Under the pieces are notes generated by a model. That model was not told where the DNA came from, did no database searches, and saw only the letters and a list, made by a program, of their open reading frames with translations. From positions 1 through 53,369 of the forward strand of contig CAYUVA010000033.1 of assembly GCA_964448115.1 (NCBI GenBank): 53,369 nt of DNA, in the 5' to 3' direction. A program made the position numbers and the translations under genes. Positions 28,823-48,100 of the stretch are shown in pieces; within the stretch, counting starts at the first letter, position 1; each line of letters opens with the position of its first letter. The stretch is from an uncultured bacterium (lineage in GTDB: Bacteria; CAYUVA01).

Positions 28823-30010
28823 ATGAGAGAAGTTTATCTTGATAATAATGCTACCACCGAGCTTGATCCCGAAGTGAAAAAGGCGATGATCGAAGCTATG
28901 GAGGCTTATGGGAATGCCTCCAGCCACCATCATTTCGGGCATAGAACAAAAGAGCTTATCGAACAGGCTCGCGAACAGACCGCAAAGATCATCGGCGCAG
29001 AGGCTTCCGATATCGTTTTCACTGGCAGCGGATCAGAGGCGAACAACCTGGCAATAAAAGGAGTCGCCTGCGAAGGGCTGGTCTGTAAGGGGCTGGAGAT
29101 AAAGGCTGGCAAGCATATAATAACCTCACAGATCGAGCATCCATCGGTGCTCAATACTTGCAAGTGCCAGGAACAATTCGGTTTCAAGGTAACCTACCTG
29201 CCAGTCGATAAATACGGGCTGATAGACCCAGGATTGGTCGAAAAGGCGATAAATCCCAACACATCGCTGATAACTATTATGCTCGCCAACAACGAGATCG
29301 GCACCATCGAGCCGATCAAGGAGATCGCAAAGATCGCTAGAAAGCATAATCTCCTCTTCCATACCGATGCGGTTCAGGCAGTTGGCAAGGTCGATATCGA
29401 TGTTCACGAGCTTGGCGTTGATATGCTATCCCTAACCGGGCACAAGATTCATGGGCCCAAGGGTAGCGGAGCGCTATACCTACGCAAGGGATTATCGCTC
29501 TGTCCTCTAATACATGGCGGGGGGCAAGAGAAACGACGCCGAGCCGGCACTGAGAATGTCATCGGTATAGTCGGACTCGGGAAAGCGCTCGAGATCGCTC
29601 GCAAGAGCATGCCTGAGGTGCCACAAAGGATGCAGAGATTGCGTGATATGCTCTGGGAGGGCATAAAAAATAGCATACCTGAAGTGAGCCTGAACGGGCA
29701 CCCAACCCTGCGCCTGCCTAGCACGCTAAATGTCGCCTTCAAGTACATCGAGGGGGAATCGATCCTGATGATGATGGACTCGGTAGGTATCGGTGCATCA
29801 ACAGGCTCCGCCTGTTCCTCCGACTCACTGGAGCCATCTCATGTTCTGCTCGCTATCGGTCTTCCCCACGAGGAAGCACATGGAGCGGTCCGCTTCAGCG
29901 TCGGCAAATTTAACACCGAGGAAGACATTACTTATACTTTGGAAAAGCTACCTCCTTTAATAGCGCGCCTACGAGAGATGAGTCCCTTGTACAACGCAAA
30001 GACAAGCTAA
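28823..30010 (+). CDS. iscS: Cysteine desulfurase (IscS/NifS, group I)
   Basis: YLDNNATT, HTDAVQ, GHKIHGPKG, RAGTEN and STGSACSS motifs. Confidence 0.95.
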   Translation: MREVYLDNNATTELDPEVKKAMIEAMEAYGNASSHHHFGHRTKELIEQAREQTAKIIGAEASDIVFTGSGSEANNLAIKGVACEGLVCKGLEIKAGKHIITSQIEHPSVLNTCKCQEQFGFKVTYLPVDKYGLIDPGLVEKAINPNTSLITIMLANNEIGTIEPIKEIAKIARKHNLLFHTDAVQAVGKVDIDVHELGVDMLSLTGHKIHGPKGSGALYLRKGLSLCPLIHGGGQEKRRRAGTENVIGIVGLGKALEIARKSMPEVPQRMQRLRDMLWEGIKNSIPEVSLNGHPTLRLPSTLNVAFKYIEGESILMMMDSVGIGASTGSACSSDSLEPSHVLLAIGLPHEEAHGAVRFSVGKFNTEEDITYTLEKLPPLIARLREMSPLYNAKTS

Positions 30011-30016
30011 TACGCT

Positions 30017-30230
30017 CCCCCCCTTAATCCCCCCGTGAACGGGGGGAATAATTCTTAGAATTTCGTCATCGCTTGNNNNNNNNNNNNNNNNNNNNNNNNN
30101 NNNNNNNNNNNNNNNNNNNNNNNNNNNNNNNNNNNNNNNNNNNNNNNNNNNNNNNNNNNNNNNNNNNNNNNNNNNGAATTTCGTCATCGCTTGAGTTGTC
30201 CCTCAATCACACCGTGAACGGGGGGAATAA
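30017..30230. repeat. REP-like hairpin repeats on both sides of the assembly gap
   Basis: ccccccgtgaacggggggaataa (30029-30051) and a degenerate copy caccgtgaacggggggaataa (~30210-30230). gaatttcgtcatcgcttg occurs at 30058-30075 and 30176-30193. Confidence 0.7.
30076..30175. other. Assembly gap (100 N)
   Basis: Run of N. Confidence 1.
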
Positions 30231-30245
30231 CAGTGGAGCTTCTAT

Positions 30246-30276
30246 TGACTCAGCTCTGCCATGAAGCGGGTCTTGT
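30246..30276. repeat. att-like direct repeat, left copy (displaced pilT 3' end)
   Basis: tgactcagctctgccatgaagcgggtcttgt is identical to 36943-36973. On the minus strand this copy reads KTRFMAELSQ*. Confidence 0.9.
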
Positions 30277-30419
30277 TTTTATCTTCCTTAACATTTACCC
30301 TATATATATAGGGATGCATTAGGTTTCGGCTTGAAATGCTTTGATTGGCTCGCTCCCAATCATAATACATCCAAAATAGGCTAGGATATTAACGGCTGAC
30401 CTAAAAAAGGACGCATCGC

Positions 30420-33400
30420 TCACACTCGATTATCATTCTCGTTATATACTAAAGAATACAGTACAGGGAGAACAAACAATGTAAGCATCAACGCACTTGT
30501 CAGTCCCCCAAGAACCACGATAGCCAGCGGACGTTGGATCTCAGCCCCTATCCCGTTGCTATAAACCATAGGCATCAAGCCAAAGAGGGTGGTCATTGTG
30601 GTCATTACAAGTGGTCTTAGGCGCACGCGGCAAGCGGTTATTATTGCATCACTAGTGGTTGCCCCCTGCTTTTTCGACTGGTCTATAAATGTAATCAGCA
30701 CCATCCCATTAGCGACTGCCATGCCTAGTAATGCTATGAACCCAATAACTGCCGAGACACTCAAGTTCACCTTTAGAATCATTATGGCAAAGATTCCCCC
30801 AACCAGGGCAAAGGGTAGATTTGTCAGCACTAATAGTGCGCTTCTCAATGACCCCAGCCCGGAGTAAAGCATCAGAAATATCAGAAATATACACAAGGGA
30901 ACTATTATACTCAGCCTCCTCATTGCACGTTTTTGGTTCTCGAACTGTCCTCCAAAATCAATGAAGTAATTAAAGGGCAATTCTTTCTCTACCCCTGCCA
31001 GCTTGTCTTTGAGCTCACTGATGAAGCTGTCTATGTCCCTATCCACGACATTGCACTCCACTACAACTCTCCTTAAGTTGTTTTCTCTGCTTATTTGCGC
31101 GGCAGTCTCCACCTTCGCAACCTCGACCAGGGATTCTAATGGGACAGTGTAGCCCATGGGACTCGGCACCAGTATCCCTTTTATGGCTTGCACATCGGTT
31201 CTCGCATGTTCTGGATATCGAAGCTGGATGCCGAAACGACGCTCTTTCTCCACCACAGTGGTAGCTACCTTGCCCCCTATGGCGATCTCCACAATATCAT
31301 TAATATCCTCAACATTTATCTTATGCCTGGCGATCCTTTCTCTATTGATGATCAGTTCGATCTGTTCCAGACCCGAAATCTGCTCCACCTTGACATCCAC
31401 AGCGCCGCTGGTTTCGATTAGTACGCTTGCTATCTCATCAGCGATCTCCTTGATTTTAACAAGATCATCACCGAAGATCTTGATAGCCACATCTGACTTT
31501 ATCCCGGAGATAAGCTCATTAACTCGCAGCGCTATAGGCTGCGAAAAAGATGGTCTTATACCCGGTATCATGCTCAGTTCCTCTCGAATATCCTCGATGA
31601 GATCAGCCTTTTTCCTTCCTGGTTTCCACTTGTCATAAGGTTTAAGGATAATTATCATGTCATTTTGCTCTGGACCCATCGGGTCTTCGGAGATTTCTGC
31701 TCGACCGGTTTTTGTAACGATTGTTTCAATTTCTTCGTACTTAAGTAGCCTTTTTTCAATGAAGGTCCCTACTTCTTTCGCTCCCTCAAGCGAGGCGGTA
31801 GGGAAGCGCACTATATTTATAGCGATCGCGCCCTCATCTAGCTCGGGCAGAAACTCCATCCCCAGCCATGGAAGCATTGATACAGCTGACAGCAGCAAAA
31901 CAACAGTTGCAGCTATAACCAGCCATCTGAACCTGAGTGCCAGTTTGAGCAGGGGGTGGTAGATGAGGTCAAGATACCTTACTATCGGATTCGCAACTCT
32001 TGGTCGCTTAAATGGCAAAAGTATCCAGCCTATTACAGGAGCTGCGACAAGAGACACAAAAAGGGAACCAAACATGGCGAAACAAAGAGTTAAAGCGAGC
32101 GGTTTGAACATCTTGCCCTCCATTTGCTCCAGGGAGAACAAGGGGAGGAATACGATAATAATGATTAAAATGGAGAAGATGACCGGTCGCGCCACCTGTG
32201 CAACTGCCTCTGTAAGAATTATCAGCTTATCCGATTCTGTAGGATCATTTTCTGAAAGATGGCGCACCATATTTTCGATAACGACTATAGAACCATCTAC
32301 GATAATACCGATAGCTATGGCGATCCCCCCCAGAGACATTAGGTTTGCCGTAACCTCTGAATAATCCATAAAGATAAAAGCGATCAGAGCTGATATGGGC
32401 AATGAAATGGATACGATAAGCGCAGCCCTTAAATTCCAAAGGAAAAGAAACAAGATGATTATAACTAGTAATCCACCCTGCATCAGAGCGTTGGTTATTG
32501 TATTCACGCATCCCTGTATCAGTAAGGTGCGGTCGTAGAAGGTGTTTATCTTTACCCCTTCAGGAAGGCTTTTTTCGATCTGAGTTATCTTTTCCTTAAC
32601 TCGATTTACCACTGACTTGGAGTTCTCCCCCTTGAGCATGATAACCATCCCGGCTACGGTCTCCCCCATGCCATCTCGCGTAACCGTGCCCCAACGAGTT
32701 ACATGGCCTATCTGGACATCAGCCACATCCGAAAGAAAGACCGGTGTTCCATCCTCAGCCTTAAGCACAATTTTCTCGATATCCTCGATGGAGCCAATCA
32801 ATCCGACACTGCGTATGTTGAACTGCTCCCAACCTTGAACGATAAAGCGACCTCCAGCATTGGCATTATTGGCTCGAATCGCCTCGAAGATTTCCTTTAA
32901 TGTTATCCTATATTTTATTAGCATCTCCGGTTTTGCTAAGACATTAAACTGCTTGACCATTCCGCCGAAGCTGTTGACCTCATTAACTCCCGGTATTGCC
33001 CGTAACTGGGGGGCAATCACCCAGTCCTGAATGGTGCGCAGCTCTGTAGGAGAGTGGCGATCGCTGCTCAATGTATATTGATATATCTCACCAAGCCCTG
33101 TGCTTATAGGTCCCAACTTAGGCTCCACGCCTTCGGGGAGGTTTTCCTTGGCGAGCTGCAATCGCTCAAAGACCAACTGGCGTGTGAAGTAGGTATCATA
33201 ATTATCCCCAAAGATTACCACCACCTGTGATAGACCAGTTTTGGACAGAGACCTCACCTGAACTACCCCAGGTAAGCCACTCATCTCCACCTCTATGGGG
33301 AAGGTAATCTGCTGCTCAACATCGACCGGCGTAAAGCCGGGAACCTCGGTTAGTATCATCACCTGAATGTTGGTCACATCCGGAAAGGCGTCTATTGGAA

Positions 33401-33497
33401 GCCTCGAATAAGACCTTATGCCCAGGATGATTATAGCGATAATGAAAAAAACGATCAGATTTCTTTGCCTGAAAATATTTCTAATCAATCCAGTCAT
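30420..33497 (-). CDS. czcA: CzcA/CusA family heavy-metal efflux RND permease
   Basis: LPIDAFPDVTN.QV, GLGEIYQY, ANLMSLGG.AIAIG..VDG, EGKMFKPLA, RLRP..MT and GAEIQRPLA motifs. Confidence 0.95.
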   Translation of the reverse strand: MTGLIRNIFRQRNLIVFFIIAIIILGIRSYSRLPIDAFPDVTNIQVMILTEVPGFTPVDVEQQITFPIEVEMSGLPGVVQVRSLSKTGLSQVVVIFGDNYDTYFTRQLVFERLQLAKENLPEGVEPKLGPISTGLGEIYQYTLSSDRHSPTELRTIQDWVIAPQLRAIPGVNEVNSFGGMVKQFNVLAKPEMLIKYRITLKEIFEAIRANNANAGGRFIVQGWEQFNIRSVGLIGSIEDIEKIVLKAEDGTPVFLSDVADVQIGHVTRWGTVTRDGMGETVAGMVIMLKGENSKSVVNRVKEKITQIEKSLPEGVKINTFYDRTLLIQGCVNTITNALMQGGLLVIIILFLFLWNLRAALIVSISLPISALIAFIFMDYSEVTANLMSLGGIAIAIGIIVDGSIVVIENMVRHLSENDPTESDKLIILTEAVAQVARPVIFSILIIIIVFLPLFSLEQMEGKMFKPLALTLCFAMFGSLFVSLVAAPVIGWILLPFKRPRVANPIVRYLDLIYHPLLKLALRFRWLVIAATVVLLLSAVSMLPWLGMEFLPELDEGAIAINIVRFPTASLEGAKEVGTFIEKRLLKYEEIETIVTKTGRAEISEDPMGPEQNDMIIILKPYDKWKPGRKKADLIEDIREELSMIPGIRPSFSQPIALRVNELISGIKSDVAIKIFGDDLVKIKEIADEIASVLIETSGAVDVKVEQISGLEQIELIINRERIARHKINVEDINDIVEIAIGGKVATTVVEKERRFGIQLRYPEHARTDVQAIKGILVPSPMGYTVPLESLVEVAKVETAAQISRENNLRRVVVECNVVDRDIDSFISELKDKLAGVEKELPFNYFIDFGGQFENQKRAMRRLSIIVPLCIFLIFLMLYSGLGSLRSALLVLTNLPFALVGGIFAIMILKVNLSVSAVIGFIALLGMAVANGMVLITFIDQSKKQGATTSDAIITACRVRLRPLVMTTMTTLFGLMPMVYSNGIGAEIQRPLAIVVLGGLTSALMLTLFVLPVLYSLVYNENDNRV

Positions 33498-33521
33498 GTT
33501 AACATTACCTTTACGCTATTA

Positions 33522-34880
33522 TCATTCCGCACAACCAGCCCCCATCTTAGTCCGCAGAACATCCGATTTTAAGATAAAAGCTCCAGCGGTTACGACCTGT
33601 TCACCAATCGCAACCCCATCGAGAATCTCAACCCCAGAGTCAAATATCTGCCCGACGGTTACCCTTCTCCTTATGAACAGGTTATCTTTTAACTGCTTAA
33701 AGACAAAGGATGCGCCCTCATCGCTCAGTACCGCCTCGGTTGGCACCAATAACGACTTATCATGTGTAGGCAAAGGGATGGTTATATGACAGAACATCCC
33801 TGGGCGCAGCAGTCCTTCATGGTTCTTGACCGTTATCCTCACCCTTATAGTGCGAGTGCTCTCCTGCATAATATTGCCTATATAATCGACCTTCCCATCG
33901 AACCTATGCTCCGAATAGGCATCTACACTCAGCCAGGCGCGTATCGAACTGTTACTCGATGCTCTTAACAAACTCAATAGATAAGGCTCATAGACATCTG
34001 CCCATACCCACAACGAGTTTAGATCGGAGACAGATAAAAGCTCGTCTTGATTAGTTATATAGCTGCCAACCGCAACCTGAAGCTCAGTAACATAGCCGCT
34101 TATGGGAGCTTTGACTGAAGTCGATCCTATATCGAACGAGCCAGGATTGGATAGCTTCTCGATATCACCATTGCTCAGACCTAATAAACATAGCTTTCGT
34201 TTCATAGCTTCCAAAGTTATCACGTTGCTTTTGTATTCAGTCTTTGCCTGAAGCATTTCTTTCTCGGAGCTTATCTTCTGGTCATATAACACTTTCTCTC
34301 GTTCATAACTTTGCCGGCTTAGCTCCATTATAGCTTTTGCCTTCAGGTAGTCGGCTGTGGCTTCGCCGAGTTCTATGCTATCGATGGTTAAAAGCGGATC
34401 CCCTTTCTCTACCTTTGTTCCATAATCGACAATGACTTCTCTCACTACCCCGCTAATGCGGGATGATACTTGAACGGTCCTCGATCTGTTTAATTTGATC
34501 TCACCAGTTGTTTTCAGGTTTATGCTTGGCTTCTTAAGCCCTACTTTGGAGATCTTCACCAATCCGTCAGAGCCATCTGCACCTAGGAGGCTTGGATCAA
34601 TGTTTACCGCTCCCACCTCGAATCGACAATGACCACAATCAATTGACTTGATATTATGCTCGCATTCGAGGTCTAAGATCTCGTCTATGCTCATATCCAG
34701 AGTGTTTAGGTCTCCATGATATTCGTGGTCATGACCATTCTCATCGTGTTCATGGACTGATTCTAATTCTGGCTCCCGCTTTTCTTGCTCATTTTGCGAA
34801 TAATTAGCATTAATGAACAAGAAAACTGTTAGAAAAACCATTATCAACAATATAAATTTACTGATAGCTTTTCTCATCAT
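33522..34880 (-). CDS. czcB: CzcB-type RND periplasmic adaptor with His/Cys-rich N-terminal region
   Basis: 'SRISG.V', 'V.KGD.L', 'APISG.V', 'TRT..VR', 'LRPGMF'. Start MMRK after GGAGG. Confidence 0.9.
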   Translation of the reverse strand: MMRKAISKFILLIMVFLTVFLFINANYSQNEQEKREPELESVHEHDENGHDHEYHGDLNTLDMSIDEILDLECEHNIKSIDCGHCRFEVGAVNIDPSLLGADGSDGLVKISKVGLKKPSINLKTTGEIKLNRSRTVQVSSRISGVVREVIVDYGTKVEKGDPLLTIDSIELGEATADYLKAKAIMELSRQSYEREKVLYDQKISSEKEMLQAKTEYKSNVITLEAMKRKLCLLGLSNGDIEKLSNPGSFDIGSTSVKAPISGYVTELQVAVGSYITNQDELLSVSDLNSLWVWADVYEPYLLSLLRASSNSSIRAWLSVDAYSEHRFDGKVDYIGNIMQESTRTIRVRITVKNHEGLLRPGMFCHITIPLPTHDKSLLVPTEAVLSDEGASFVFKQLKDNLFIRRRVTVGQIFDSGVEILDGVAIGEQVVTAGAFILKSDVLRTKMGAGCAE

Positions 34881-36180
34881 TTCCTCCTGGCAATTTGTTT
34901 TCCTTATTTTTGTTTTCACCAAGCGAATAAGCACCGGTTAGGCGATCAATGCTGCTCTTTATTAGATGATATTCTTTTAATGCTTGTAGATACTGGCTTC
35001 GTGTCTCAAAAAATGTTCTCTGTGCGTCGAGAACATCGAGATACTCGAACTTGCCCTCTTCATATCCCTCCTGAGCTGAAATGAAGGCTTTTTCAGCACT
35101 AGGCAGGATGCTCTCCTTTAAGGTAATAATCTCATCCAGAGCAGTCTGAAGCGATTGATATTGCTGGTTTAATTCGGTACTTATCCTGGTTTCAACCATC
35201 CGCTGTTCAGCATGAGCTTTTGACCAATCGTATCTAGCTGCTGCGATGTTGCCCTGATTTCTGTCCAAGATAGGAATGGGGAGAGAGACCCGGATGATAG
35301 AGGTTACCTCATCGCTTTCATTGAAATAGTTGCCCCCCACGCCGATAGCGAGGTTCGGGTACCGCTGTGCCTTCATCAGCTCCAGGTTTGCCTCTTTAAG
35401 CACCATGTTTGTAAAGGGTCGGATGGCATCCGGATTATTGGTAAGAGCTTTGGCTAACTCTTTCAATGGAGGTGCTAGGTTTATATCTTGCAGATCCCAT
35501 AGCACCTTTTGGAAGTTCGGCTTTTCATTACCCCAATTTGATGACAGCTTGATCCTGCTCGCATTGAGCGAACCTTGAGCCTTTTTTAGCTCCAGCTTGC
35601 TTTGCTCAAATGCTGTCTCTGCTTTTATTTGCTCCAGATAGGATACAGCCCCAGCTTCCACCTTGTCTTTGACAGCCTGATACATCTGTTCGTTCAATTG
35701 AGCTAGCTCTTCAGTTAATACAACCATATCCTGCCAGAATGCCACCTGGATGAGTGCAGCAGTGGTCTCAGCGAGTATGTCTTGCTTCAACGATTCGAGC
35801 TCTAGGAGGGTGATTTTTTTCAAAGACTCTGCGATCTGGATACGCTTGTTTCGCTTTTTACCTAGTTGAATTTCTTGACTAAGCATGATGGTATTTTCAG
35901 CAGCCTTGTAACCACTAGCGAACTTTGCAATCTCCAACTCTAGCTCAGGATTTGGCAACAGACCTGCCTGCCGGACATTTTCGTTATCAATGCTTATTTG
36001 TTTTCTGTACGCGATGAGACTCGGACTGTGTTCCAGGGCTAGTTTCCATGCCGCTTCGATGGTCAAGAGATCGACCGGCTCGATATTTTCAGCATAAACA
36101 GCAGTGGTTACTAATGATAAGAACAATATCGCCCATAATTCGATGATAATAATCGCCTTGTTTATCAGATTCATTTTCAT
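34858..36180 (-). CDS. czcC: CzcC/TolC family outer membrane efflux protein
   Basis: 'AGLLPNPEL', 'GKKR..R', 'LPIPILDRNQGNI', 'YLDVLDAQRT'. Confidence 0.9.
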   Translation of the reverse strand: MKMNLINKAIIIIELWAILFLSLVTTAVYAENIEPVDLLTIEAAWKLALEHSPSLIAYRKQISIDNENVRQAGLLPNPELELEIAKFASGYKAAENTIMLSQEIQLGKKRNKRIQIAESLKKITLLELESLKQDILAETTAALIQVAFWQDMVVLTEELAQLNEQMYQAVKDKVEAGAVSYLEQIKAETAFEQSKLELKKAQGSLNASRIKLSSNWGNEKPNFQKVLWDLQDINLAPPLKELAKALTNNPDAIRPFTNMVLKEANLELMKAQRYPNLAIGVGGNYFNESDEVTSIIRVSLPIPILDRNQGNIAAARYDWSKAHAEQRMVETRISTELNQQYQSLQTALDEIITLKESILPSAEKAFISAQEGYEEGKFEYLDVLDAQRTFFETRSQYLQALKEYHLIKSSIDRLTGAYSLGENKNKENKLPGGNDEKSYQ

Positions 36181-36303
36181 TACCTAAAAAGCTCCTACAG
36201 TTTTTCACTTTTTATTGTGTTTATTGGGGAATTTTATGATTGTATAGCCTTATTCAGAGTGTGGTGATGAAAAACGAGTGAAAAATATTATATCTGGGAT
36301 TGC

Positions 36304-36729
36304 TCAGATCAGAAGAACGGTTGTGTAAATCAATTTCAGAGTAGATGAACCATTAAACTGCCCTGTAACATGAGATGCCCATTCCATACCTTGGATAGGA
36401 TCCGATCTGCTGGTGAATCCCATACTTATGGCTTGGTTGAGTACAAGTTGAACCTGTTGGGTAGGTAAATAATGATCTTTGATAGGGATATTGATGCAAT
36501 CTCCACATAAATCATCTTGCGAAGCATTGATTTCATCAATACACCCTAGATCCATATGTGTCGCCAGGCAATACTTGTGATTTACGCTGTATTCGACCTT
36601 GATCTGTCGGTCAGCATCTTGGCAGATAACCATAGCAACATCGCCCCTGAAGCAACTGTACAGCAACAATAATACAATGCCTGTAACTACTGGTTTTAAT
36701 CTAATAACTGTTTTAGATAATTGTTTCAT
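36304..36729 (-). CDS. Small Cys/His-containing exported protein upstream of czcC (CzcI-like position)
   Basis: N-terminal hydrophobic segment, 'VIC...VE', 'CGDCINIP', C-terminal 'TTVLLI'. Confidence 0.55.
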   Translation of the reverse strand: MKQLSKTVIRLKPVVTGIVLLLLYSCFRGDVAMVICQDADRQIKVEYSVNHKYCLATHMDLGCIDEINASQDDLCGDCINIPIKDHYLPTQQVQLVLNQAISMGFTSRSDPIQGMEWASHVTGQFNGSSTLKLIYTTVLLI

Positions 36730-36938
36730 TACCTTTAGAATAATATCATCAATATGTTGAACATTCTTGTATCGTAATTTATTCCCTTACAAAAGGCGCT
36801 CATAATATGATCAATAAAAATTCAGGTCTTGAGCCATTGCTGTTCACTTAAGGCTCTTGCCGAAATCATCCCAAAAAAGCAATTTCAAACTGAAGGTTTG
36901 GGCTAATGTGTAGGAAAGTCTTTTGGTTGAACCAGATC

Positions 36939-38006
36939 TCACTGACTCAGCTCTGCCATGAAGCGGGTCTTGTCAATTGCTTTCTTTCGGGCTTCCTCGA
37001 CGGTTACCTTTCCTTTTTCTACCAGGCGCCTTAGATACTGATCCATGCTGATCATGCCGGTGGTCTCATAGTCGGTCGATTGGATCAGTGAATTTATCTG
37101 ATAGGACTTTGCCTCGCGAATGAGGTTAGCCAAGGCAAATGACCCCTTTAGTATCTCCACTGCCGCCACCCTTCCCTTGCCATCAGCAGTCTTGAGCAAC
37201 TGCTGTGCCACCACCCCCTGAAGGCTCATCGAAAGCATGACCCGCATCTGCTCCTGGCGATCCGAGGGGAATACATCGATCAATCTGTCTATGGTCTTTG
37301 CTGCCGAGTTTGTATGTAAAGTGCCGAACACCAACGCCCCGGTCTCGGCGCAAGTTACTGCCAGGCTAATGGTCTCCAGGTCTCGCATCTCGCCGACCAG
37401 GATCACATCGGCAGCCTCTCTAAGTGCGCTCTTAAGCGCCGCGGCAAAGGTGTGCGTATGTGTCCCCAGCTCCCTCATGGAGATGAACGATTTCTTGGGA
37501 TTATGTACGAATTCTATGGGATCCTCGATGGTAACTACATGCTTCGAGTAGTTGTTGTTGATTATGTCTATAATGGCAGCCAGGGTGGTTGATTTCCCGC
37601 TACCAGTCGGTCCTGTAACCAGCACCAATCCCCGCTCAAGGTGCGCAAAGTACTCCAGAGCAAGGGGAAGATCAAGCTCCTCAAGCGTATGGATGCGCTC
37701 CGGGATTAGTCGGAAGGCTCCAGCAACCCCGTTGCGATCATAGTAGAGATTGACCCTGAACCTGCCGACTCCAGGAATATGATAGGCGAAATCGACATCG
37801 TGGTGTTCAAGATAATACTGTCTCAGGCGATCCGAAGGGATGATCTCATCGAACAGCTTCCAGGCATCGGCATCGGAGATGGTGCGGAACTTGATCGGCA
37901 CCAGGTCCCCGTTCACGCGCAAAATGGGAGAGGCGTTGGAGACCAGATGCAGGTCAGAGGCACCCTGCTCGACCACGATCTTCAGGAATGCATCAATCTT
38001 CGGCAT
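36939..38006 (-). CDS. pilT: Type IV pilus retraction ATPase PilT
   Basis: ASDLHL, GPTGSGKSTT, TIEDPIE, ILVGEMRD, GTLHT and ALANLIRE motifs. Confidence 0.93.
   Translation of the reverse strand: MPKIDAFLKIVVEQGASDLHLVSNASPILRVNGDLVPIKFRTISDADAWKLFDEIIPSDRLRQYYLEHHDVDFAYHIPGVGRFRVNLYYDRNGVAGAFRLIPERIHTLEELDLPLALEYFAHLERGLVLVTGPTGSGKSTTLAAIIDIINNNYSKHVVTIEDPIEFVHNPKKSFISMRELGTHTHTFAAALKSALREAADVILVGEMRDLETISLAVTCAETGALVFGTLHTNSAAKTIDRLIDVFPSDRQEQMRVMLSMSLQGVVAQQLLKTADGKGRVAAVEILKGSFALANLIREAKSYQINSLIQSTDYETTGMISMDQYLRRLVEKGKVTVEEARKKAIDKTRFMAELSQ
36943..36973. repeat. att-like direct repeat, right copy (current 3' end of pilT)
   Basis: Identical to 30246-30276. Confidence 0.9.
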
Positions 38007-39087
38007 CGGGCTGCGCCATCGCTTTTAGGAAGTCATCATCTATCAAGTGCTCGAACTTGGTCTTATCATGAGCCTTTTTGAACGCCTCATCGCCGGTAAT
38101 GATACCTTCGTTGTGAAGACGAAGTAGCTCTTCATCCATGATCTGCATCCCCAATCCCTTGCTGGTGGACATGATGCTTTGGATCATGTAAATCTTGTTG
38201 TCCCTGATTAGCTTGGGTAACGATGTTGTTGATACCAGGATCTCCATCACCGCCTTGAGCTTCCCCTTGACCGTTTTGACCAACTGTTGCGAGATAACCC
38301 CCTTTAGCGACTCACTGAGCATGGTGCGGATCTGCGCCTGTTGAGAAGCGGGAAAGGCGTCTATGATGCGGGTGATCGTCTTGGCGGCATCGGTCGTGTG
38401 CAGGGTCCCCAGCACCAGGTGCCCGGTCTCGGCAGCGGTGATGGCCATCTGGATTGTCTCTAGGTCCCTAAGCTCGCCGACCAGGATGATATCAGGATCC
38501 TCGCGCAGTGCAAAACGAAGCGCCGCTGCGAAGGTATCGGTATGCAAGCCGACCTGCCTCTGGTTGATAAGGCATTTTTTGTTAGTGTGGATGAACTCGA
38601 TCGGATCCTCGATGGTGATGATATGATCTCGCCGATTATTATTGCACTCGTCAATTATAGCAGCCAGGGTTGTCGTCTTGCCGCAACTGGCTGGCCCGGT
38701 TACCAATATCAATCCCTGGTTAAGGTAGGCGAACTTGCGAACTACCGGTGGCAACTCAAGCTCCTCAACGCTCGGTATCTTGGCTGGAATGCGCCGAAAA
38801 ACCCCGCTTGCGCCATGTCTCTGCCGAAACAGGTTCACCCTGAAACGCGCAAGACCCTCCACCTCGTAAGCGAGATCGAGATCATTCTTTTTTTCCAGTA
38901 TCTCTCGCTGCTTGTCGTTGAGCACCTCGGATATGAGCGCCCAGGCATCGGCATCGCTCAGGGTATGGTACTTTAAACGTATAAGCTCCTGCTGATGCCT
39001 GAAGATAGGGGGCGAGCCGGCGTGGATGTGCAGATCCGAAGCGCCCTGCTCAACCAATAATTTCAAGAATGTATCTATCTTAGCCAT
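37993..39087 (-). CDS. pilT: PilT/PilU family ATPase (second paralog)
   Basis: ASDLHI, GPASCGKTTT, IEDPIE, LREDPDIILVGELRD and GTLHT motifs. Confidence 0.9.
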   Translation of the reverse strand: MAKIDTFLKLLVEQGASDLHIHAGSPPIFRHQQELIRLKYHTLSDADAWALISEVLNDKQREILEKKNDLDLAYEVEGLARFRVNLFRQRHGASGVFRRIPAKIPSVEELELPPVVRKFAYLNQGLILVTGPASCGKTTTLAAIIDECNNNRRDHIITIEDPIEFIHTNKKCLINQRQVGLHTDTFAAALRFALREDPDIILVGELRDLETIQMAITAAETGHLVLGTLHTTDAAKTITRIIDAFPASQQAQIRTMLSESLKGVISQQLVKTVKGKLKAVMEILVSTTSLPKLIRDNKIYMIQSIMSTSKGLGMQIMDEELLRLHNEGIITGDEAFKKAHDKTKFEHLIDDDFLKAMAQPDAED

Positions 39088-39107
39088 CTATTGTAATGAT
39101 TAGATAG

Positions 39108-41867
39108 TCAAGCCTTCTTGCGCACAAAGTGCTCGAACTCCTTTTTATCAAAGGCTTTGCGGAAGGCTTCCTCGCCGGAGATGATCCCCTGCTTGACCAG
39201 GTCTCCGAGCGCTTGATCCATAGTTTGCATGCCGGCGCCTCGCCCCGTGGTCAGCACCGAGGCGACCTGATAGGTCTTGCCGTCCCGGATCAGCTTGGAG
39301 AGCGACGGCGTGGAGACTAGGATCTCGAATACGGCAGTTACACCACCATCGCGCTTGCGCACCAACTGCTGCGAGATCACCGCCTTCAGCGACTCGGAAA
39401 GCATGGTTCGTATCTGTGGCTGCTGGGTCGGCGGATAGGCATCGATGATACGGTCGATGGTCTTTGCCGTGCTGGTTGTATGCATGGTGCTGAAGACTAG
39501 ATGCCCGGTCTCGGCGGCGGTGATTGCCATCTGGATCGTCTCCAGGTCGCGAAGCTCTCCCACCAGGATGATGTCGGGGTCTTCGCGTAACGCCGCTCGC
39601 AGCGCAACCGCGAACGAATCTGTGTTTCTTCCCACCTCGCGCTGATTGACCAGGCAGTTCTTGTTGCTATGGATATATTCGATGGGATCTTCAATGGTGA
39701 TTATGTGGTCATTTCGTGTCTCGTTGGCATGGTTGATAAGGGCAGCAACCGTGGTGGTCTTGCCGCAGGTTGCCGGTCCGGTTACAAGTATCATGCCCTG
39801 GTGCAACTGGGTGAAGCGCTCGAAGATCTCCGGCATACCCAGTCCTCGAATGGTAGGCGCTTCTTCGGGGATGACCCTGAAGACGGCGGAGATGCCGAGA
39901 CGCTGCTGATAAATATTGACCCGAAAGCGATCCCCCAGCGGAGTCTCGTAAGCCATATCGAGGTCCATGTTCCTCTCGAAGCGCTCCCACTGCGCAGGAG
40001 CCATTATCTCCTGTAGCATGTTGACCACCTCATCCTCGCTGAATTTCTTTTCTCGGATCTTGATCACCTCTCCGTAGTACTTCATCATCGGCTCAAAGTC
40101 TGATGATATGATAAGATCCGAGGCGTTCTTCTCCCTCACCTCGACCAGGAGCTGATCGAGAATGGATAGGAAACTCCTTTTCCACTCCACCTCCCCCATC
40201 TTCTTGATCTGTTCGATATCGATGTGCTGCTCGTGCATCTTGAGTAGCTCCCTGGCTTTCAGTCGCACTTCCTTGTCAGTATCTGTCGAGAGCTGCTTCA
40301 ATATCTCGGTCACCCTAGGATCACCCTCATATCTGGACAGAGCGTTCAGGGCTTCCAGGCGAACATCCTTGGTCTGCTGTTCGGAAGTCATCTCCACAAG
40401 TGGCTCAACAGCAGCCGTATCACCGAGTTCTCCGAGAGCCTTTACGGCAGCGCCCTGTAAGGATTTGGTGGCGAGCAGCTTTTTAAGCAAGGGGAGCACC
40501 TTTGCCCCGCCGATACTGCCTAGTGCCTCTATGGCGCGCTCCCTTATCCACCAGTCATTATCCTTTACCAGGTTCAATAATGGCTTGAAAGCCTTTTGCG
40601 GCTTGATCTTGGCAACGATCTCGACCGCATAACGGCGCAGGTTCTCGTCCTTGTCATCCAATAGCGGCAAGATCATATCGGTTAGGGATTCATCACCTAT
40701 CTCTCCGAGCGCTGCTGCCACCTGTTCTCGTACCCACCAGTCCTCATCTCTGAGGAAGGTGAATAGATCGTGCATCAGGGTGCGATCCTTTAGCTTGGAC
40801 AGTATGTCAGCGGCGGCTCTTCTGATATTGACATCCGAGTCGCGCATCATATCGATCACCATCCTGCCCATGTTGATCGCCTTGCTCTTGCCCAGCTTGC
40901 TCATGGCGTTGACCGCCTCCTGGCGAACGAAGATATCCTTATCCTTAAGGCAGTTGATCAGCGTCGATATGGTGCCATGGTCGCCAGTTTTTGACAATAT
41001 TTTAAGCAGGGTAACCTTCAGGCGTGGATCAGCCTTGGCGATGGTAGTGATCACCCTGGCGTTTACCTTGGAATCAGCGACCTTCAACAGGCTCTCTGCA
41101 GCAGCGTGTTGCACCCTTGGGACATCGTCGCCAAGAAGATTTGCCAGGGCCTGCTGGGCAATAGCATCTTTATATAATCCGAGAGTTTCAGCTACCCGCT
41201 GGCGGACATGGTGATCCTGGTGTGATGCTAGGGTAACTAAGAACTCGACAACAGCGCGATCCTTTGAGGTGGCGAGGATCTCCAGGATGCCGTCTATATC
41301 ACGCTTCAAACTGCTTGAGATCGCCTCTTTTAAGACTCTTAGAGCCTCATTGGTGTCGAGATCGAAAAGCGCCTGGTAGGCAGTCAATTTACTATACCAT
41401 CCAGGCTCAGCAAGCATGTCCTTGAGCTTATAGAAGGTGCTGCGGTTTCCTATCTTGCGCACGACCCTCAGTGCTCCTTCCCTGAGATCGGGATCTTTAT
41501 TCTTGAGCAGCTTGAGTATTCGATGATCGTCATCGTTAGTGGCGGTCTGGTATAATACCTTGAAGATAACCTCTCTTGTCTGACCATCGATCACCGACTG
41601 TGCGCTATTGACCAGGTCTTCGACCAGCCTGGGATCATGCAACTTGATCAAGATCTCCTCGATGGCAAGCAGCTTCTCGCTTTTCAGCTTGGGATTGGTA
41701 TCTAGGTATGTACGAAAGAGGATATCGACCACCGAGCGCGCTGGAACATGGGGAAGGTTAAGGATATCGCGAACCAGCTTGCGTCGAGCCTCATCGTCTT
41801 CCCAGTCCCCTTTATTCAACTGGGCGATCAGGTTCCTGGCTTCCTTGGAGAATATTATCTTTGCCAT
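39108..41867 (-). CDS. HEAT-repeat/PilT-family ATPase fusion
   Basis: About 560 aa of 'L.D.D..VR..A..AL..IG' repeats, then a full PilT domain (ASDLII, GPATCGKTTT, IEDPIE, LREDPD, STMHT). Confidence 0.9.
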   Translation of the reverse strand: MAKIIFSKEARNLIAQLNKGDWEDDEARRKLVRDILNLPHVPARSVVDILFRTYLDTNPKLKSEKLLAIEEILIKLHDPRLVEDLVNSAQSVIDGQTREVIFKVLYQTATNDDDHRILKLLKNKDPDLREGALRVVRKIGNRSTFYKLKDMLAEPGWYSKLTAYQALFDLDTNEALRVLKEAISSSLKRDIDGILEILATSKDRAVVEFLVTLASHQDHHVRQRVAETLGLYKDAIAQQALANLLGDDVPRVQHAAAESLLKVADSKVNARVITTIAKADPRLKVTLLKILSKTGDHGTISTLINCLKDKDIFVRQEAVNAMSKLGKSKAINMGRMVIDMMRDSDVNIRRAAADILSKLKDRTLMHDLFTFLRDEDWWVREQVAAALGEIGDESLTDMILPLLDDKDENLRRYAVEIVAKIKPQKAFKPLLNLVKDNDWWIRERAIEALGSIGGAKVLPLLKKLLATKSLQGAAVKALGELGDTAAVEPLVEMTSEQQTKDVRLEALNALSRYEGDPRVTEILKQLSTDTDKEVRLKARELLKMHEQHIDIEQIKKMGEVEWKRSFLSILDQLLVEVREKNASDLIISSDFEPMMKYYGEVIKIREKKFSEDEVVNMLQEIMAPAQWERFERNMDLDMAYETPLGDRFRVNIYQQRLGISAVFRVIPEEAPTIRGLGMPEIFERFTQLHQGMILVTGPATCGKTTTVAALINHANETRNDHIITIEDPIEYIHSNKNCLVNQREVGRNTDSFAVALRAALREDPDIILVGELRDLETIQMAITAAETGHLVFSTMHTTSTAKTIDRIIDAYPPTQQPQIRTMLSESLKAVISQQLVRKRDGGVTAVFEILVSTPSLSKLIRDGKTYQVASVLTTGRGAGMQTMDQALGDLVKQGIISGEEAFRKAFDKKEFEHFVRKKA

Positions 41868-42133
41868 TGAAGGTTATTTCTCCCCATATCACGGTTTATC
41901 CGCTGCTATTGCCATTAAATATAACAAACAACTCGATCAGATTACAAGCTCGATAATTGCGCAATTGGAAAAGGATAAAATCAAGAAAGTTGTTTTTATT
42001 ATCTCTCATGTTAATCAGTGGTGCTGTCATTTGATTAAATCGTTTTTTTAGGTTAATAAAAAAGGGCAATGTATTATTTTATACATGCAGTAACTGTTTG
42101 GATCTATTTCAATTAAGCCGGAGAAACTCCTAT

Positions 42134-45100
42134 ATGTATGTAGATGAAGGTCGGTGTAGAAACAAGTTCATTCTATCACCCGGCATTAAGGTCAAGATAA
42201 TCGCCCAACTTTTCCTTGCCGCTATACTTGTTACCCTGGTCTCCTCGAACTCCCTTGCTATCGTTCCCCCAAAAGAAGGGGCTGTTTTACCCCCAAAGCT
42301 AAAGGAGATGATGGAAGTCGGGCTGGGAAGGGTCGAGAGTCCCGAGAAACCGCGCCTTACAACCACGACGGATGGAAAAAGCAGGCTAGCAGTTACTGGG
42401 ACCAGGTACTTACCGGTTCTTTGCGGAGAATTCTCTAATACCGGCTCCCATGACTGGCCTATATCGAACCTTCAGACCGAGCTTTTCGATGGACCATGGC
42501 CAACAGGGACCATGAAGCAGTATTACCAGGAGATCTCCTACAATAACTTCCAGGTAGATGGCACGGTTTACGGCTGGTACAAGGTGAGCAATACGAATAC
42601 CTATTACCAGGGACCCAACGGCTGCAACGGTTTGTGTAGCGAAGGGGCAAGCACATCGAATGCTGGTCGCTTTGTTTACGAGGTGATCCAGCTTGCCGAT
42701 CCCTCTATCAACTTTGCTCAGTATGATAACGATGGACCGGACGGGATTCCGAATTCCGGGGATGATGATGGCTATGTTGACACGCTGGTAATAGTCCATG
42801 CAGGCATCGGCGGCGAGTGCGGTGCTGGCAACCAGATCTGGTCGCATAGCTGGACGCTGAGCGGATGGTATCCTTACACGCAGCCGCCAAGAGTCAATAC
42901 ATATACAACCAATGATGCCCGCAACGGTGGAGGATATATCAGGATCAACGACTATGTGATCCAGCCTGGGCTCGCCTGCAATGGCTCGACTATGATCCAG
43001 ATCGGCGTCTTCTGCCACGAGTATGGTCATGCCCTCGGATTACCCGATCTGTATGATACAGATGGCAGCTCCGAGGGGGTCGGCAACTGGTGCTTGATGG
43101 CTGGAGGCAGTTGGGGAGGAGACGGAAGCCATCCTGAATACCCAGTCCACATGAGCGCCTGGTGCAAAACCAAGCTGGGTTGGCTAAATCCCATCGTGGT
43201 TACCTATGACCGCATAAACGAGGCTATCCCTCAGGTGGCTAATACCCCGGTTGCCTACAAGATGTGGACCAACGGCTCTCCAGCCAATGAGTATTTCCTG
43301 CTCGAAAACCGCACCTCGCAAAGCTCTGGCTTCGATCGCTATCTATACAACTCTGGGCTTTGTATTTGGCATATCGATGATGATACGACCACCAACCAGA
43401 AAGAGAACTGCGGTGGCTGTGTGGAAAGTGCCAGTCTTCATTATCTGGTGGCGCTCGAACAAGCCGATGGCGCCTGTCATCTGGAGTGCAATAGTAACCG
43501 AGGCGATGCAGGGGATGTATTTCCAGGAAGCAGCGGCAAGACCAACTTCAATAACACCACAAATCCGAGCAGCAAAAGATACAGCGGCACTAGCACCAAT
43601 GTCCAGGTTAACAATATCAGTTACTCCGGCGGGATCGTTTATGCGAGCCTCTATACGGGACTAGGCTCCGGTGCAACTCCCACATATACTCCGACTAGAA
43701 CGCCATCCAGAACACCGACCCGCACACCGACCTACACTCGCACTAATACCCCCAGCGATACGCCGACAAGGACACCAACCTTTACCAGGACAAATACACC
43801 AACCTACACTCCAACAAGGACGCCTACCTTTACAATTACGAACACACCCAGTAATACCCCAACTAGAACACCGACATGGACACCAACATCCACAAGCATC
43901 CCGACCGCTACTCCGAGCATAACGCCGACCTTTACCATGACAAATACACCAAGCAATACACCTACCAGAACACCGACCAATACGCCAACGAGGACTTCGA
44001 CTGCGATCCCAAGCGGTACGCCAACCATGACCGCCACATTGACTCCCACTACCACCCCTAGTAACACGCCCACTATGACCGCTACGGCAGTGCCGACCAG
44101 CACGCCAACGATAACCCCGACCGCGGTCAGCTTCGATCCCGACCTCTGCTGGGTAAGCTACAGCCCTACCGGCATGGATGTGCAGTGGAACCCGGATCTG
44201 AACACGATCACGGCTGACCTTGCCACCCTTTATAATGTGGGGGTGCGCGGGGTGATCACCTACTCAGCGCGAGATAATCTTAGATTTATTCCACAGATAG
44301 CACGAGATCTCGACTACCAGGGCGTGATCATGGGGATCTGGGACCCCACGAATGCCAGCGAGCTAAACGATGCCAAGTCGCAATCATCTTATGTTGATGC
44401 TTACTGCATAGGAAACGAGGGGCTGTATGCTGACTACAATCTGCAACAGCTCGTGCAGGCTATGGAGGATGTGCGCACAAGCACCGGCAGGTCAGTGAGC
44501 ACCTCGGAGCCTGCTTACGAATATATATACGATGATAACCTCGTCTATCTCGGCGATTTCTTGATGCCCAACAGCCATCCATACTGGGATCCGGCGGTGA
44601 GTAGCGTGAGTGATGCCATTGCCTGGATGCAGAACATGGATAGCCTGATCAAATCTAGGACCGATAGAATGGTCTTTCACAAGGAGACCGGTCTGCCGAC
44701 TGACGGGGATGTCAACTGCAGCTTCTGCAACCAGGCGGGACAGCGCGATTTTTACATCGACTTGCAGGACACGAGTCTATTATTCTCTTACTTCGAGGCT
44801 TATGATCAGGCATGGAAGACCTCGCATCCAGTGGAACCGTACTGGGGAATCTTTGATAAAGATCGCTTTCCCAAGCTGGTGGTGCCTTATATCTGCGGTA
44901 ATACTCCCACGCCGACACCGAGCGATACGCCGACCGCCATACCGAGCGCAACTCCGACTCTGACGCTCACCAACACGCCGACCGGGGCTCCAAGTGCTAC
45001 GCCAACCAACACGCCAACGGTTACAGAGACAATGACGCCGACGCTAACGCCTAGCAATTCGCCCTCGATTACGCCGACCAGAACGCCAAGCAACACTCCG

Positions 45101-48100
45101 AGCCTGACACCGACCGGAACCCCGAGCGCTACGCCGACTGCTACAGCAACCCCAAGCGCGACCGCCTCATCAACTCCGACCACAACTGTAACCGATACAG
45201 CAACGGTTACTCCGAGCAGGACGCCGACCAATACCCCATCTGTAACGCCAACTCGTACTCCGAGCAACACACCCACCTCGACCCAGACCACTTTGCCGAG
45301 CACTACCCCGACAATGACACCAAGTTTAACCCCGAGCGCCACGCCGACATATACACCCTGTTATAACGATGATCCCTACGAGTACGGCGCTGGGAATGAT
45401 ACTTATGAAAATGCTGTCTTTATGGATACAAATGGAGCGCCGATCCAGGAGCTTTTCTGCCACGATGCAGACCCTGACTGGCACACCTTCATTGCGAGCA
45501 CAGGGCGCGAATACACTATCTGGACATCGCAACTGGGCACCGATGTCCTAACCAGCATCTATCTTTATGGCAATCCGCCACAACCAACCCCACTAGCCTT
45601 CTGCGAATCGAGTCCACCTTATGGCGAGTGCTCCATCCAGTATTCCTTCAACTCCAGCGGGCAGTATTATTTCCTGGTATATCCATCTGATGGGAGCGCT
45701 TATGGCTTCGGCGCTGATTATAATGTCCAGCTTTTAGCCAACACCTTCACTCCAACCGGCGCCCCTACCCATACACCGAGTAACACTCCAAGCGGCACTC
45801 CCACCGAGCTTCCGTCGTTCACGCCGACCTTTACTCCAAGCGTAACGCCGAGTTTCACCCCGACCTTTACTCCTACCGATACAAGCACTACATCGCCGAC
45901 CTCGACCCCGAGCCGCACACCTACCAGAACACCGACCGCGACCTATACGCTAAGCCCTTCAATTACACCTACATCAACGCCATCATCGACACCTACTTAT
46001 ACTCATACGCAGGTTCCGACCGCGACTTTCACCCCCACTGCGACCGGCACCGCTAGACCCTTGCCTTATGTGGAGGACTTCGAGGCTGATCCTGATGGAT
46101 GGGGCTACTGGGGCGCATTATGGGAAAGAGGCTTCCCGACCATGGTCGGTCCCTCGACGCCCTATGAGGGGAGTGCCTGCATGGGGACAAACATCGATGG
46201 CTATTATATAAACAGCGGGCAGTACCACCTGATCAGCCCCAACCTGAGCCTTGCCGATGGGAACTTAACCATCCCGGTGCTCACCTTATATCACTGGTAT
46301 CTCTGCGAGCAGAACTGGGATGGCGGGAATATCAAGATAAGCATAGATGGCGGAGAGAATTGGTCAATCATCACGCCGACGCCATATTATGACTTTGGTA
46401 CTGTCAAAGGTTTGGGTTACAAGCCGGGCTACTCCAGCGAGAGCGCAGTCGGCTGGAGCATGGTCATGGCTGACCTGAGCGCATATATAGGTTATGATGT
46501 GCTCATTGATTTTCACTTCGGTACCGATGATGCTGGAGATCCCTTCCCCGGCTGGTATATCGATTATGTCGAGGTCTTCGATGGGATAATCTTGACCCCG
46601 ACAGCGACCCCCAGCGATACGCCGACGGCGACCTATACTCCAACCACGACAGCGACCCCGACCGCAACTCCGAGTGGTGTGCCGACAATTACTCCGAGTG
46701 CAACCCCGACCAACACCTTCACCTCAGCACCAACTGCATTGCCTACCCTAACACCGACTAACACCCCCACGGTTACGGATATACCGACCAGCACCAATAC
46801 TCCGACACTGACTCCATCGATTACCTCAACTCGTACTCCTACCTTGACGCCGAGCACAACCCCGACCGGTACCGCTACAAAGACCCCGACCCAAGCGCCG
46901 ACTCATACCATTACGCAAACGCCGACCCTGACTGCCAGCAGCACGCCGACCATCCTTCCCTCCTCGACGCCGACCGCAACCCCAAGCCCGACCGATACCC
47001 CCACCCGCACTCCAAGCAGAACACCAAGCAACACCCCGAGCAGAACGCCGACTTTAACCCCATCTTCCACTGCTACCAACACGCCGAGTCGCACCCCCAC
47101 CTACACGCAGACTACCTCGCCAACCGGGACCGCATCCATGACGCCGAGCGCTACGCCCACAACCACGAGCACCGGCTCGCCGACCGCAACCCCAAGCGAG
47201 ACTGCTACGAAAACCCCAACCACTACGCATACCCCGACAATTACAGATACGCCAAGCACCACCCCCACGCATACTCCGACAGGGACGAGTACTATAAGCC
47301 CGACCACCACCTGCACGGAGACGAGCACCCCTACGGTAACCTCGACACCGACCATCACATTGACCTCAACGCCGAGCACTACCCCGACTCAGACGGCGAG
47401 TGCAACTCCGAGCGCCACGGTTACCATGACGCCAACCCAGACCTTTACCCGTACTCCTACATTGACCCCCAGCGGCACGCCGACCAGCACACCCTCGCCG
47501 ACCCCGATACTTCTCCCCTACTTTGAGGACTTCGAGGATGCTGCTATCTTCGAGGTCAGGGGCACATCAACGGTATGGGAATGGGGGCAGCCGATGTGGG
47601 TAGGACCCGACTCGGCTTACAGTGGCGTTAATTGCTGGGGAACGAATATCGATGGCAACTACGAGGATGTAAGCTCATACAGCGACCTGGTCAGCCCGGT
47701 GATCGACCTTGGTTCCGTGTCTGGGACGCCGATGCTCAGCTTCTGGCACTGGTATCAGATCGATGGCTTCTCGGAGCATGCCTACGATGGTGGCAATATT
47801 CGAGTCAGCGTTGATGGTGGAACAAGCTGGCAGGTAGTATTCCCCGAAGGTGGCTATCCGTTCGACGAGGTCGATGGCTTGGGCGGCGAGCCTGGATATA
47901 GCTACAATCCGAATCCTGCCTGGGAAAAGGTTCAAGTCGATCTGAGCGATTATGCCGGGAGTATGGTGCTAATCGGGTGGCGCTTAGGTATGGACTGGTC
48001 GCGAGATCCGCTGCCTGGCTGGTACATCGATGATGTGAGGATCTATGAGTATTCCGCTGCCACAGCCACGCCGACAGTAACGCCTACAATAGAAGGTACT

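Follow-up and report, generated by a model that had tools for sequence, protein, structure and literature searches.

We examined a 53,369-bp stretch of DNA from an uncultured bacterium of the lineage CAYUVA01—the whole of contig CAYUVA010000033.1 (C33 in our numbering of the contigs, and hereafter the window), which belongs to a 3.98-Mb genome in 86 contigs with 94% completeness. In the window, a four-gene operon with the features of a heavy-metal efflux system lies between two identical 31-bp direct repeats, one of which forms the end of a gene encoding a PilT/PilU-family ATPase. From left to right, the locus contains the following features:

28823–30010, plus strand: gene for a NifS/IscS-type cysteine desulfurase (TIGR03402, 530.7 bits vs. 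a cut-off of 530.75), preceded by a NifU-type scaffold gene
30011–30245, no strand: spacer from the NifS gene to the distal repeat copy, with G/C hairpin units resembling repetitive extragenic palindromes (REP-like units) and a 100-N gap at 30076–30175
30246–30276, minus strand: distal (left) repeat copy, which together with 30242–30245 reads (D)KTRFMAELSQ-stop with CAA TAG; putative original gene end, attR-like
30277–30419, minus strand: region 3′ of the pump gene, with a 16-nt perfect palindrome (30298–30313) and one arm of an inverted repeat (30325–30342)
30420–33497, minus strand: CusA/CzcA-family heavy-metal pump of the resistance-nodulation-division (RND) type, 1025 aa (TIGR00914, 1123.4 bits, cut-off 701.45)
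33522–34934, minus strand: czcB-like periplasmic adaptor (TIGR01730, 180.2 vs. a cut-off of 94.9)
34858–36180, minus strand: czcC-like outer-membrane factor (PF02321 OEP, 155.1 vs. a cut-off of 22; best NCBIfam model IhpA, below its cut-off)
36304–36729, minus strand: orphan open reading frame (ORF) of 141 aa that opens the operon; its hydrophobic N-terminal segment ends in a Cys, and there are five more Cys residues
36730–36942, minus strand: AT-rich upstream (putative promoter) region, with the head of a dispersed repeat (36866–36907) and the other inverted-repeat arm (36876–36894)
36943–36973, minus strand: proximal (right) repeat copy, within the last 11 codons of the PilT-family gene, with G TGA directly after it; attL-like and putatively of island origin
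36939–38006, minus strand: PilT/PilU-family ATPase, 355 aa, the target gene (TIGR01420, 430.7 bits, cut-off 319.1, residues 4–346)

The first-pass annotation of this DNA had described the repeat as perfect, and the copies at 30246–30276 and 36943–36973 are indeed identical. They also form a unique pair: the 31-mer has two matches in the contig at up to three mismatches, a count that none of 100 dinucleotide shuffles reached, and exactly two copies in the whole genome, still two when up to four substitutions are allowed. Within this genome, the 31-mer is not a dispersed repeat, a possibility raised at first pass. When the genome was scanned for perfect direct repeats spaced 0.5–60 kb apart and the copies of each were counted, the output consisted mainly of one large array of clustered regularly interspaced short palindromic repeats (CRISPR) and of short intragenic repeats. 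Three other isolated pairs of at least 30 bp (54 bp on C1, 46 bp on C31 and 30 bp on C27) belong to dispersed families of 5–15 copies each, unlike the pair in the window, which has no third copy. The edges of the identity are sharp as well. Three of the five bases next to the 31-mer differ, after which the two sites share no similarity, and local alignment of the repeat flanks was no better than that of shuffled sequences, 361 of 500 and 224 of 500 of which reached the observed scores. Such edges would fit two molecules that had only a 31-bp segment in common.

In coding terms, the repeat duplicates the last 10–11 codons of the PilT-family gene. The proximal copy closes the gene as DKTRFMAELSQ-stop with CAG TGA, and the distal copy runs into the same in-frame Gln-stop written with other codons, CAA TAG—both as first annotated and both directly visible in the sequence. 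We estimate that an in-frame Gln-stop would follow the distal copy in a random flank with a chance of only ~1–2%. Since the Gln-stop is kept with different codons at the distal copy, both ends are likely to be real gene termini rather than products of a random target duplication.

The target gene is the last of a HEAT-PilT/PilT/PilT cluster, with a second PilT gene and then a 919-aa HEAT-repeat-PilT fusion to its right. The conserved D-K-x-R/K-F motif that closes the PilT core in homologues marks the start of the repeat, which spans the variable tail only; with the repeat confined to this tail, the ATPase stays whole and the gene would never have been at risk. The name pilT, assigned at first pass, holds for the family (the TIGR01420 score lies above the cut-off), but the gene may not be the canonical pilT, as it is one of about 23 PilT-like matches in the genome. 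Its paralogues share at most 69% DNA identity with it and lack any match to the 31-mer. The genome is unusually rich in PilT-family ATPases, the 23 matches being spread over the window (36939–41867) and contigs C13, C44, C64, C10, C8, C17 and C2; several of the clusters are headed by a HEAT/PBS-lyase-repeat-PilT fusion of ~920 aa, and the same fusion occurs in one distant genome.

The gene beyond the distal copy had been named iscS. It does encode a cysteine desulfurase, but the specific name is less secure, as the best score is to NifS (TIGR03402) and a NifU-type scaffold gene lies upstream. In the empty site as we reconstruct it, the nifU-nifS genes would converge on the PilT gene. The 100-N gap in the spacer ends 70 nt from the distal copy, and its two sides have 18 bases in common. 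The REP-like units, which have a six-C/six-G hairpin and form short tandem arrays, are found at 30020–30235 of the window and on C4 (~62.9 kb), C46 (~20.5–20.9 kb) and C66 (~4 kb), and they sit at several of the assembly's 100-N gaps, where the sequence on one side is repeated on the other. A tandem repeat that the assembler left unresolved is the probable cause of the gap at 30076–30175, rather than missing genes.

The first-pass annotation had the repeats bracketing exactly czcA-czcB-czcC plus one small ORF, with no recombinase between them, and so they do. The island of 6,666 bp, counted with its upstream and 3′ regions, holds four ORFs, all on the minus strand, and no other genes; its non-coding sequence amounts to 143 + 123 + 213 = 479 bp. 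None of the four ORFs matches a recombinase family, and family searches likewise revealed no relaxase or secretion gene among them. The features of a heavy-metal efflux RND system are present, with a pump above the TIGR00914 cut-off and adjacent genes for an adaptor and an outer-membrane factor; against the CzcB/NccB-specific model TIGR00999, the adaptor scores 173.9, under the cut-off of 319.3. The called GTG start of the adaptor gene (34934) creates a 77-nt overlap with the outer-membrane-factor gene (34858–34934) and is probably too early, the true start lying further downstream. Promoter and terminator scans of the island regions gave no score above those of shuffles. The trio and its order (outer-membrane factor, adaptor and CusA/CzcA pump) are those of the czcCBA operon, from which the island differs in having no regulator genes, in its orphan Cys-rich first gene and in a pump that is at most 69% identical to any relative found.

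The closest CzcA protein among 5.8 billion proteins is 68% identical to that of the island, and the closest among species genomes, a partial match, 69%; CzcA paralogues within the genome reach at most 38%. The relatives at 80 species-genome loci (39–69% identity) are spread over many phyla. A czcC match was found at 44 of the 80 loci and a czcB match at the majority of the 80, usually upstream of the pump and on the same strand. No match to the 141-aa ORF, PilT or NifS was seen near the 80 loci, and the ORFs upstream in the 44 showed no significant match to the 141-aa ORF. This ORF has no Pfam and no NCBIfam match, and a word-based protein search returned only the ORF itself. Its look-alikes according to a protein language model are hypothetical clusters and one DUF8199 cluster, which we regard as leads only.

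Two further repeats occur in the non-coding ends of the island. An imperfect 18/19-nt inverted repeat (30325–30342 and 36876–36894) has its arms in symmetric positions, each 48 nt in from an island end; it was matched by 8 of 500 shuffles and by 30 of 2,000 GC-matched genome pairs, or 3 of 2,000 when equally symmetric placement was demanded, and is to be taken as a lead found post hoc. The second is a solo head of an intergenic repeat family dispersed in this genome. Full copies of the family (~140 bp; four copies, 78–87% mutual identity) have a conserved 27-nt head, a strong internal hairpin and a second, direct head-like motif at the far end. Loci outside the window lie on C19 (~19.65 kb), C4 (~73.68 kb), C18 (~48.74 kb), C20 (~68.92 kb) and C17 (~75.0 kb), and solo heads were seen on C17 and in the upstream region of the island. 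Five loci compared with Rfam gave no match; the family may represent a miniature inverted-repeat transposable element, an operator or an RNA.

Contigs from three runs (X1, X2 and X3) of a single sample, probably the source one, bear on the correctness of the assembly. In X1, the 31-mer stands as its own 31-letter contig at a depth of 26, and four arms abut it at depths of 14, 9.4, 7.9 and 8.1, the contigs stopping at, or beginning one base within, each repeat copy. In X2, position 36942 is connected to 30246 in a contig of depth 3.4, as in a circle or a tandem, and there is no cover on 30176–30245 and 36974–37116. In X3, a contig covering 36903–37062 follows the assembled path, and the distal arms have no cover. 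We take the run contigs to have been built at k = 31, which fits the pattern on record. As the X2 joint and the X3 contig are both expected from a graph collapsed at the repeat, neither was counted as evidence; as a general point, a public contig set gives no phase for repeats that match its k-mer in length. Because the 31-mer is joined to all four flanks at similar depth, the junction halves exist in the reads and the island is at chromosomal copy number, and only the phase (integrated, or an empty site plus a circle) rests on the assembly. The genome assembly runs through exact repeats of 35 to >100 bp inside its contigs, which puts a 31-bp repeat within its resolving power. The worry about misassembly voiced at first pass is thus largely answered: all four junction halves are seen in the X1 contigs, but their phase is not, the contigs breaking at the 31-mer.

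With no difference in 31 bases, three in the next five and nothing shared thereafter, the repeat appears to be the only segment common to two unrelated molecules. Read from sequence, this is the pattern that one reciprocal crossover would leave if a circle recombined with a chromosome, one of the partners imitating the gene end. The explanation that we favour, tentatively and with a little less than even confidence, is that a circular cassette bearing a gene-end mimic was inserted in Campbell fashion, probably by a recombinase supplied in trans, and now resembles a cis-mobilizable element (CIME). On this account, the efflux operon would have entered the chromosome with its own upstream region, four genes and 3′ region (6,666 bp) by one reciprocal crossover between the chromosomal end of the PilT-family gene and a circle bearing a 37-bp imitation of it. 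The exchange would have fallen inside the 31 identical bases, so that the gene would now close with the CAG TGA supplied by the island, and its original finish, CAA TAG, would have been displaced by 6.7 kb, together with the downstream hairpin spacer, to a position beside nifS. The catalyst would most likely have been a site-specific recombinase on a helper element that was lost from the genome or never binned into it and, with the helper gone, the island would be a stranded, CIME-like passenger. We infer an insertion, rather than another rearrangement, a circular intermediate and the kind of enzyme; the identity of that enzyme is the weak point of the reading. Of the att-type reading proposed at first pass, a gene-restoring, unique repeat with sharp edges and no recombinase stands, and the interpretation as a whole is partly supported.

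Several known systems offer comparisons. In ICEberg 2.0, CIMEs are described as segments bounded by attL and attR that have lost their integration and transfer genes (PMC6323972). The island is similar in that the 3′ end of a protein gene is duplicated by attL/attR-type repeats and in its lack of integration or transfer genes, here lost or never present. In Streptococcus thermophilus, the CIMEs next to ICESt1 and ICESt3 occupy the 3′ end of the fda gene and have a 27-bp repeat. The island differs from CIMEs in that a cognate integrase from an integrative and conjugative (ICE) or integrative and mobilizable (IME) element was sought in the assembly and not found, and in that there is no third att copy or accretion partner. 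Its cargo, moreover, consists of one operon without remnants of a conjugative element, and it lies in a new target gene and a new host phylum. The 31-bp repeat, a putative recombination site, bounds the segment, and the sole circle-type joint, that of X2, is ambiguous; membership among the CIMEs is not established, as the search for the cognate integrase came back empty. Islands that encode an integrase and occupy the 3′ ends of protein genes, such as those of the SGI1 type in trmE, carry a tyrosine recombinase beside one att site. Shared with these are a short repeat over the last codons of the target, a reading frame kept by element-borne bases and a duplicated gene end with the gene intact, whereas the island in the window contains no tyrosine recombinase and hence no internal integrase beside an att site. 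Integrative elements exploiting XerCD (IMEX) insert at dif without a recombinase of their own. The island, too, has none, and the only tyrosine recombinases of the genome are XerD and an XerC-like protein, but the 31-mer lies in a coding region and shows, above chance, no dyad of the dif type, in which two inverted recombinase-binding arms flank a centre of 6–8 bp. Putatively, then, the island works like a CIME or a 3′-end integrative island—a known kind of element with a new target gene. A literature search found no report of a pilT gene end serving as an att site, and the passages that it returned from PMC3826726 and PMC10322971 were irrelevant to the question.

A number of observations weigh against this explanation, and those on the recombinase come first. 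None was detected among the family-matched ORFs of the 53-kb contig, where 10 of 36 ORFs have no NCBIfam match and all of these except the 141-aa ORF lie outside the island. The assembly has two PF00589 genes, one scoring as XerD above the cut-off of that model and one scoring best as XerC, just under its own cut-off; no match to PF00239 (resolvase), PF00665 (rve) or PF01609 (DDE_Tnp_1) was obtained, and no candidate for a trans-acting recombinase emerged, the two Xer genes being all that these families yielded. These negatives apply to a genome that is 94% complete and to binning, which often loses mobile DNA. Either a very poor mobilome or the loss of mobile DNA in binning would fit an assembly with a Xer pair only. 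No gene debris indicative of a decayed element was found inside the island, as four intact ORFs fill it. Dyad symmetry in the 31-mer and its flanks is at best 6/11, a value reached by 697 and 867 of 1,000 shuffles.

Composition cuts both ways. GC content, which the first pass had suggested comparing, speaks for an insertion: the GC content of the island, 0.442, is at the 5th percentile of 1,732 windows, and at the proximal repeat there is a step in GC content at third codon positions (GC3) between the island genes (0.38–0.51; 2nd–16th percentile of 1,731 long ORFs) and the three PilT genes (0.65–0.67; 90th–95th percentile). The overall shift is mild, however, with the tetranucleotide distance at the 88th percentile only and a codon-usage distance that is unremarkable within the range of the genome. 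The upstream region of the island contains a 27–42-nt stretch of the host-specific dispersed-repeat head (36866–36907), which points to an island long resident in this genome or acquired from a close relative and is a simpler explanation for one of the inverted-repeat arms than recombinase binding. Nor does anything indicate recent mobility, given the distance of the nearest CzcA relatives and an orphan ORF of no known kin.

The source genome is the only one of its phylum among the genomes compared, and its 40 relatives there share the domain only; a metagenome search with the PilT protein yielded 594 relatives, none of the best 80 above 55% identity, and the nearest relatives of the target gene are 55–59% identical. 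Neither an empty site, a second occupied site nor a free element was found in the genome, metagenome contigs or viral contigs. A degenerate pattern of the gene-end peptide had no match in the metagenome contigs and none in the viral contigs, collections that include no close relative. Duplicated pilT 3′ ends, for which a search had been proposed at first pass, did not turn up: copies of a gene's own 3′ end (at least 16 nt exact, within 12 kb) accompany none of 127 PilT-family genes at the best 80 of the 594 metagenome loci and none of 13 PilT paralogues of the source genome, in a search that recovered the 31-mer from the window as a positive control. Within the material examined, PilT ends therefore do not stand out as a hot spot used repeatedly.

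Part of this evidence would sit more easily with the same topology brought about by host homologous or illegitimate recombination, the donor being a related strain that carried the operon behind its orthologous PilT gene. This is a possible origin, though one that we regard as rather unlikely. The operon could have been circularised and then integrated by RecA in one crossover within the 31 identical bases; alternatively, incoming DNA could have anchored in pilT and joined illegitimately 37 bp before the stop of the recipient, whose own gene end would have been left as a stub. Both routes agree with an assembly that has no integrase besides the Xer pair, with the missing dyad symmetry and with the near-native composition, and the dispersed-repeat head suggests a closely related donor; 23 matches to type IV pilus ATPases are, by our own linking, what a cell capable of DNA uptake might be expected to show. 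Against such an origin, the run of 0/31 differences (with ~10 synonymous sites), then 3/5 and then nothing would be odd for the ends of close orthologues, 31 bp comes close to the minimum length for RecA-dependent exchange, no donor lineage came up in the PilT and CzcA searches, and the GC3 step speaks against full nativeness. Very improbable, in our view, is that the operon is ancestral at this place and the distal copy is a leftover of some local rearrangement, such as a recently duplicated PilT end or a paralogue otherwise deleted. PilT paralogues are many and often in tandem, the island is not strongly foreign in composition, and its CzcA relatives (68%) are about as distant as those of the PilT gene (55–59%). 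The paralogues are, however, too divergent and without the 31-mer, on the gene side of the distal copy the similarity breaks off abruptly and does not grade into pilT-like sequence, a perfect 31-mer with a different stop codon immediately behind it calls for a junction at that point, and the GC3 step again falls at the proximal repeat.

A phase error in the assembly, by which the PilT gene would in fact end with CAA TAG facing nifS and the operon with one repeat copy would be a separate circle or lie elsewhere, is about as improbable, and we consider it slightly less credible still. It would account for the run contigs that break exactly at the 31-mer and leave the continuation of the arms to choice, for the X2 contig that joins 36942 to 30246 and for a scaffold gap so near the distal copy. 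That joint, however, is what a k = 31 graph produces when only the two island arms are sampled; X3 shows the opposite, as-assembled path for the same reason, longer exact repeats are resolved within contigs of the genome assembly, and arms of about equal depth would be unlikely for a 6.7-kb circle with no replication genes. Even if the phase were wrong, the sites would be attB and attP instead of attL and attR, and the biology would be unchanged. Hardly credible at all is transposition with a 31-bp target-site duplication. The flanking direct repeats and a weak inverted repeat near both ends recall it, but the inverted repeats begin 48 nt inside the ends, not at them, the island contains no transposase, and neither PF00665 nor PF01609 is represented in the assembly. 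To our knowledge, 31 bp far exceeds the duplications made by transposases; chance alone would have had to place the one missing base and a stop directly after it at the island end (~2% by our estimate), and the genome holds no copies of the element with different flanking duplications.

A more specific idea can be entertained, which we think quite unlikely: that the 31-base gene-end mimic by itself directs a recombinase-free operon cassette to a pilus ATPase gene, at its dispensable tail, in a phylum known from one genome. The efflux unit might be looped out and re-inserted through the short repeat by host recombination after DNA uptake or, alternatively, moved by a trans-acting enzyme that would bind the symmetric inverted repeats 48 nt inside each end.

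Other features of the contig and the genome were recorded in passing. An ORF of 216 aa in the window (19744–20394, minus strand) is akin to 16S rRNA A1408 N1-methyltransferases (NpmB, NpmA and KamB models), with scores so far below the cut-offs that only the fold family can be named. A 2,143-aa protein with an M6-type metalloprotease domain is encoded at 42098–48529 (plus strand), and the contig's most atypical tetranucleotide composition (distance 0.33) is found at 42–48.7 kb. On C15, a very long CRISPR array (~75.4–84.1 kb) contains well over 100 units, all on a single contig; the 28-nt repeat has a G/C hairpin.

The case presented here is tidy but single, and it is unreplicated. If the island is a true att-bounded passenger, the end of a PilT-family gene would join the known integration sites in protein genes, and recombinase-less metal-resistance islands would occur in a deep, uncultivated lineage whose assembled genome is nearly devoid of mobile-element enzymes.

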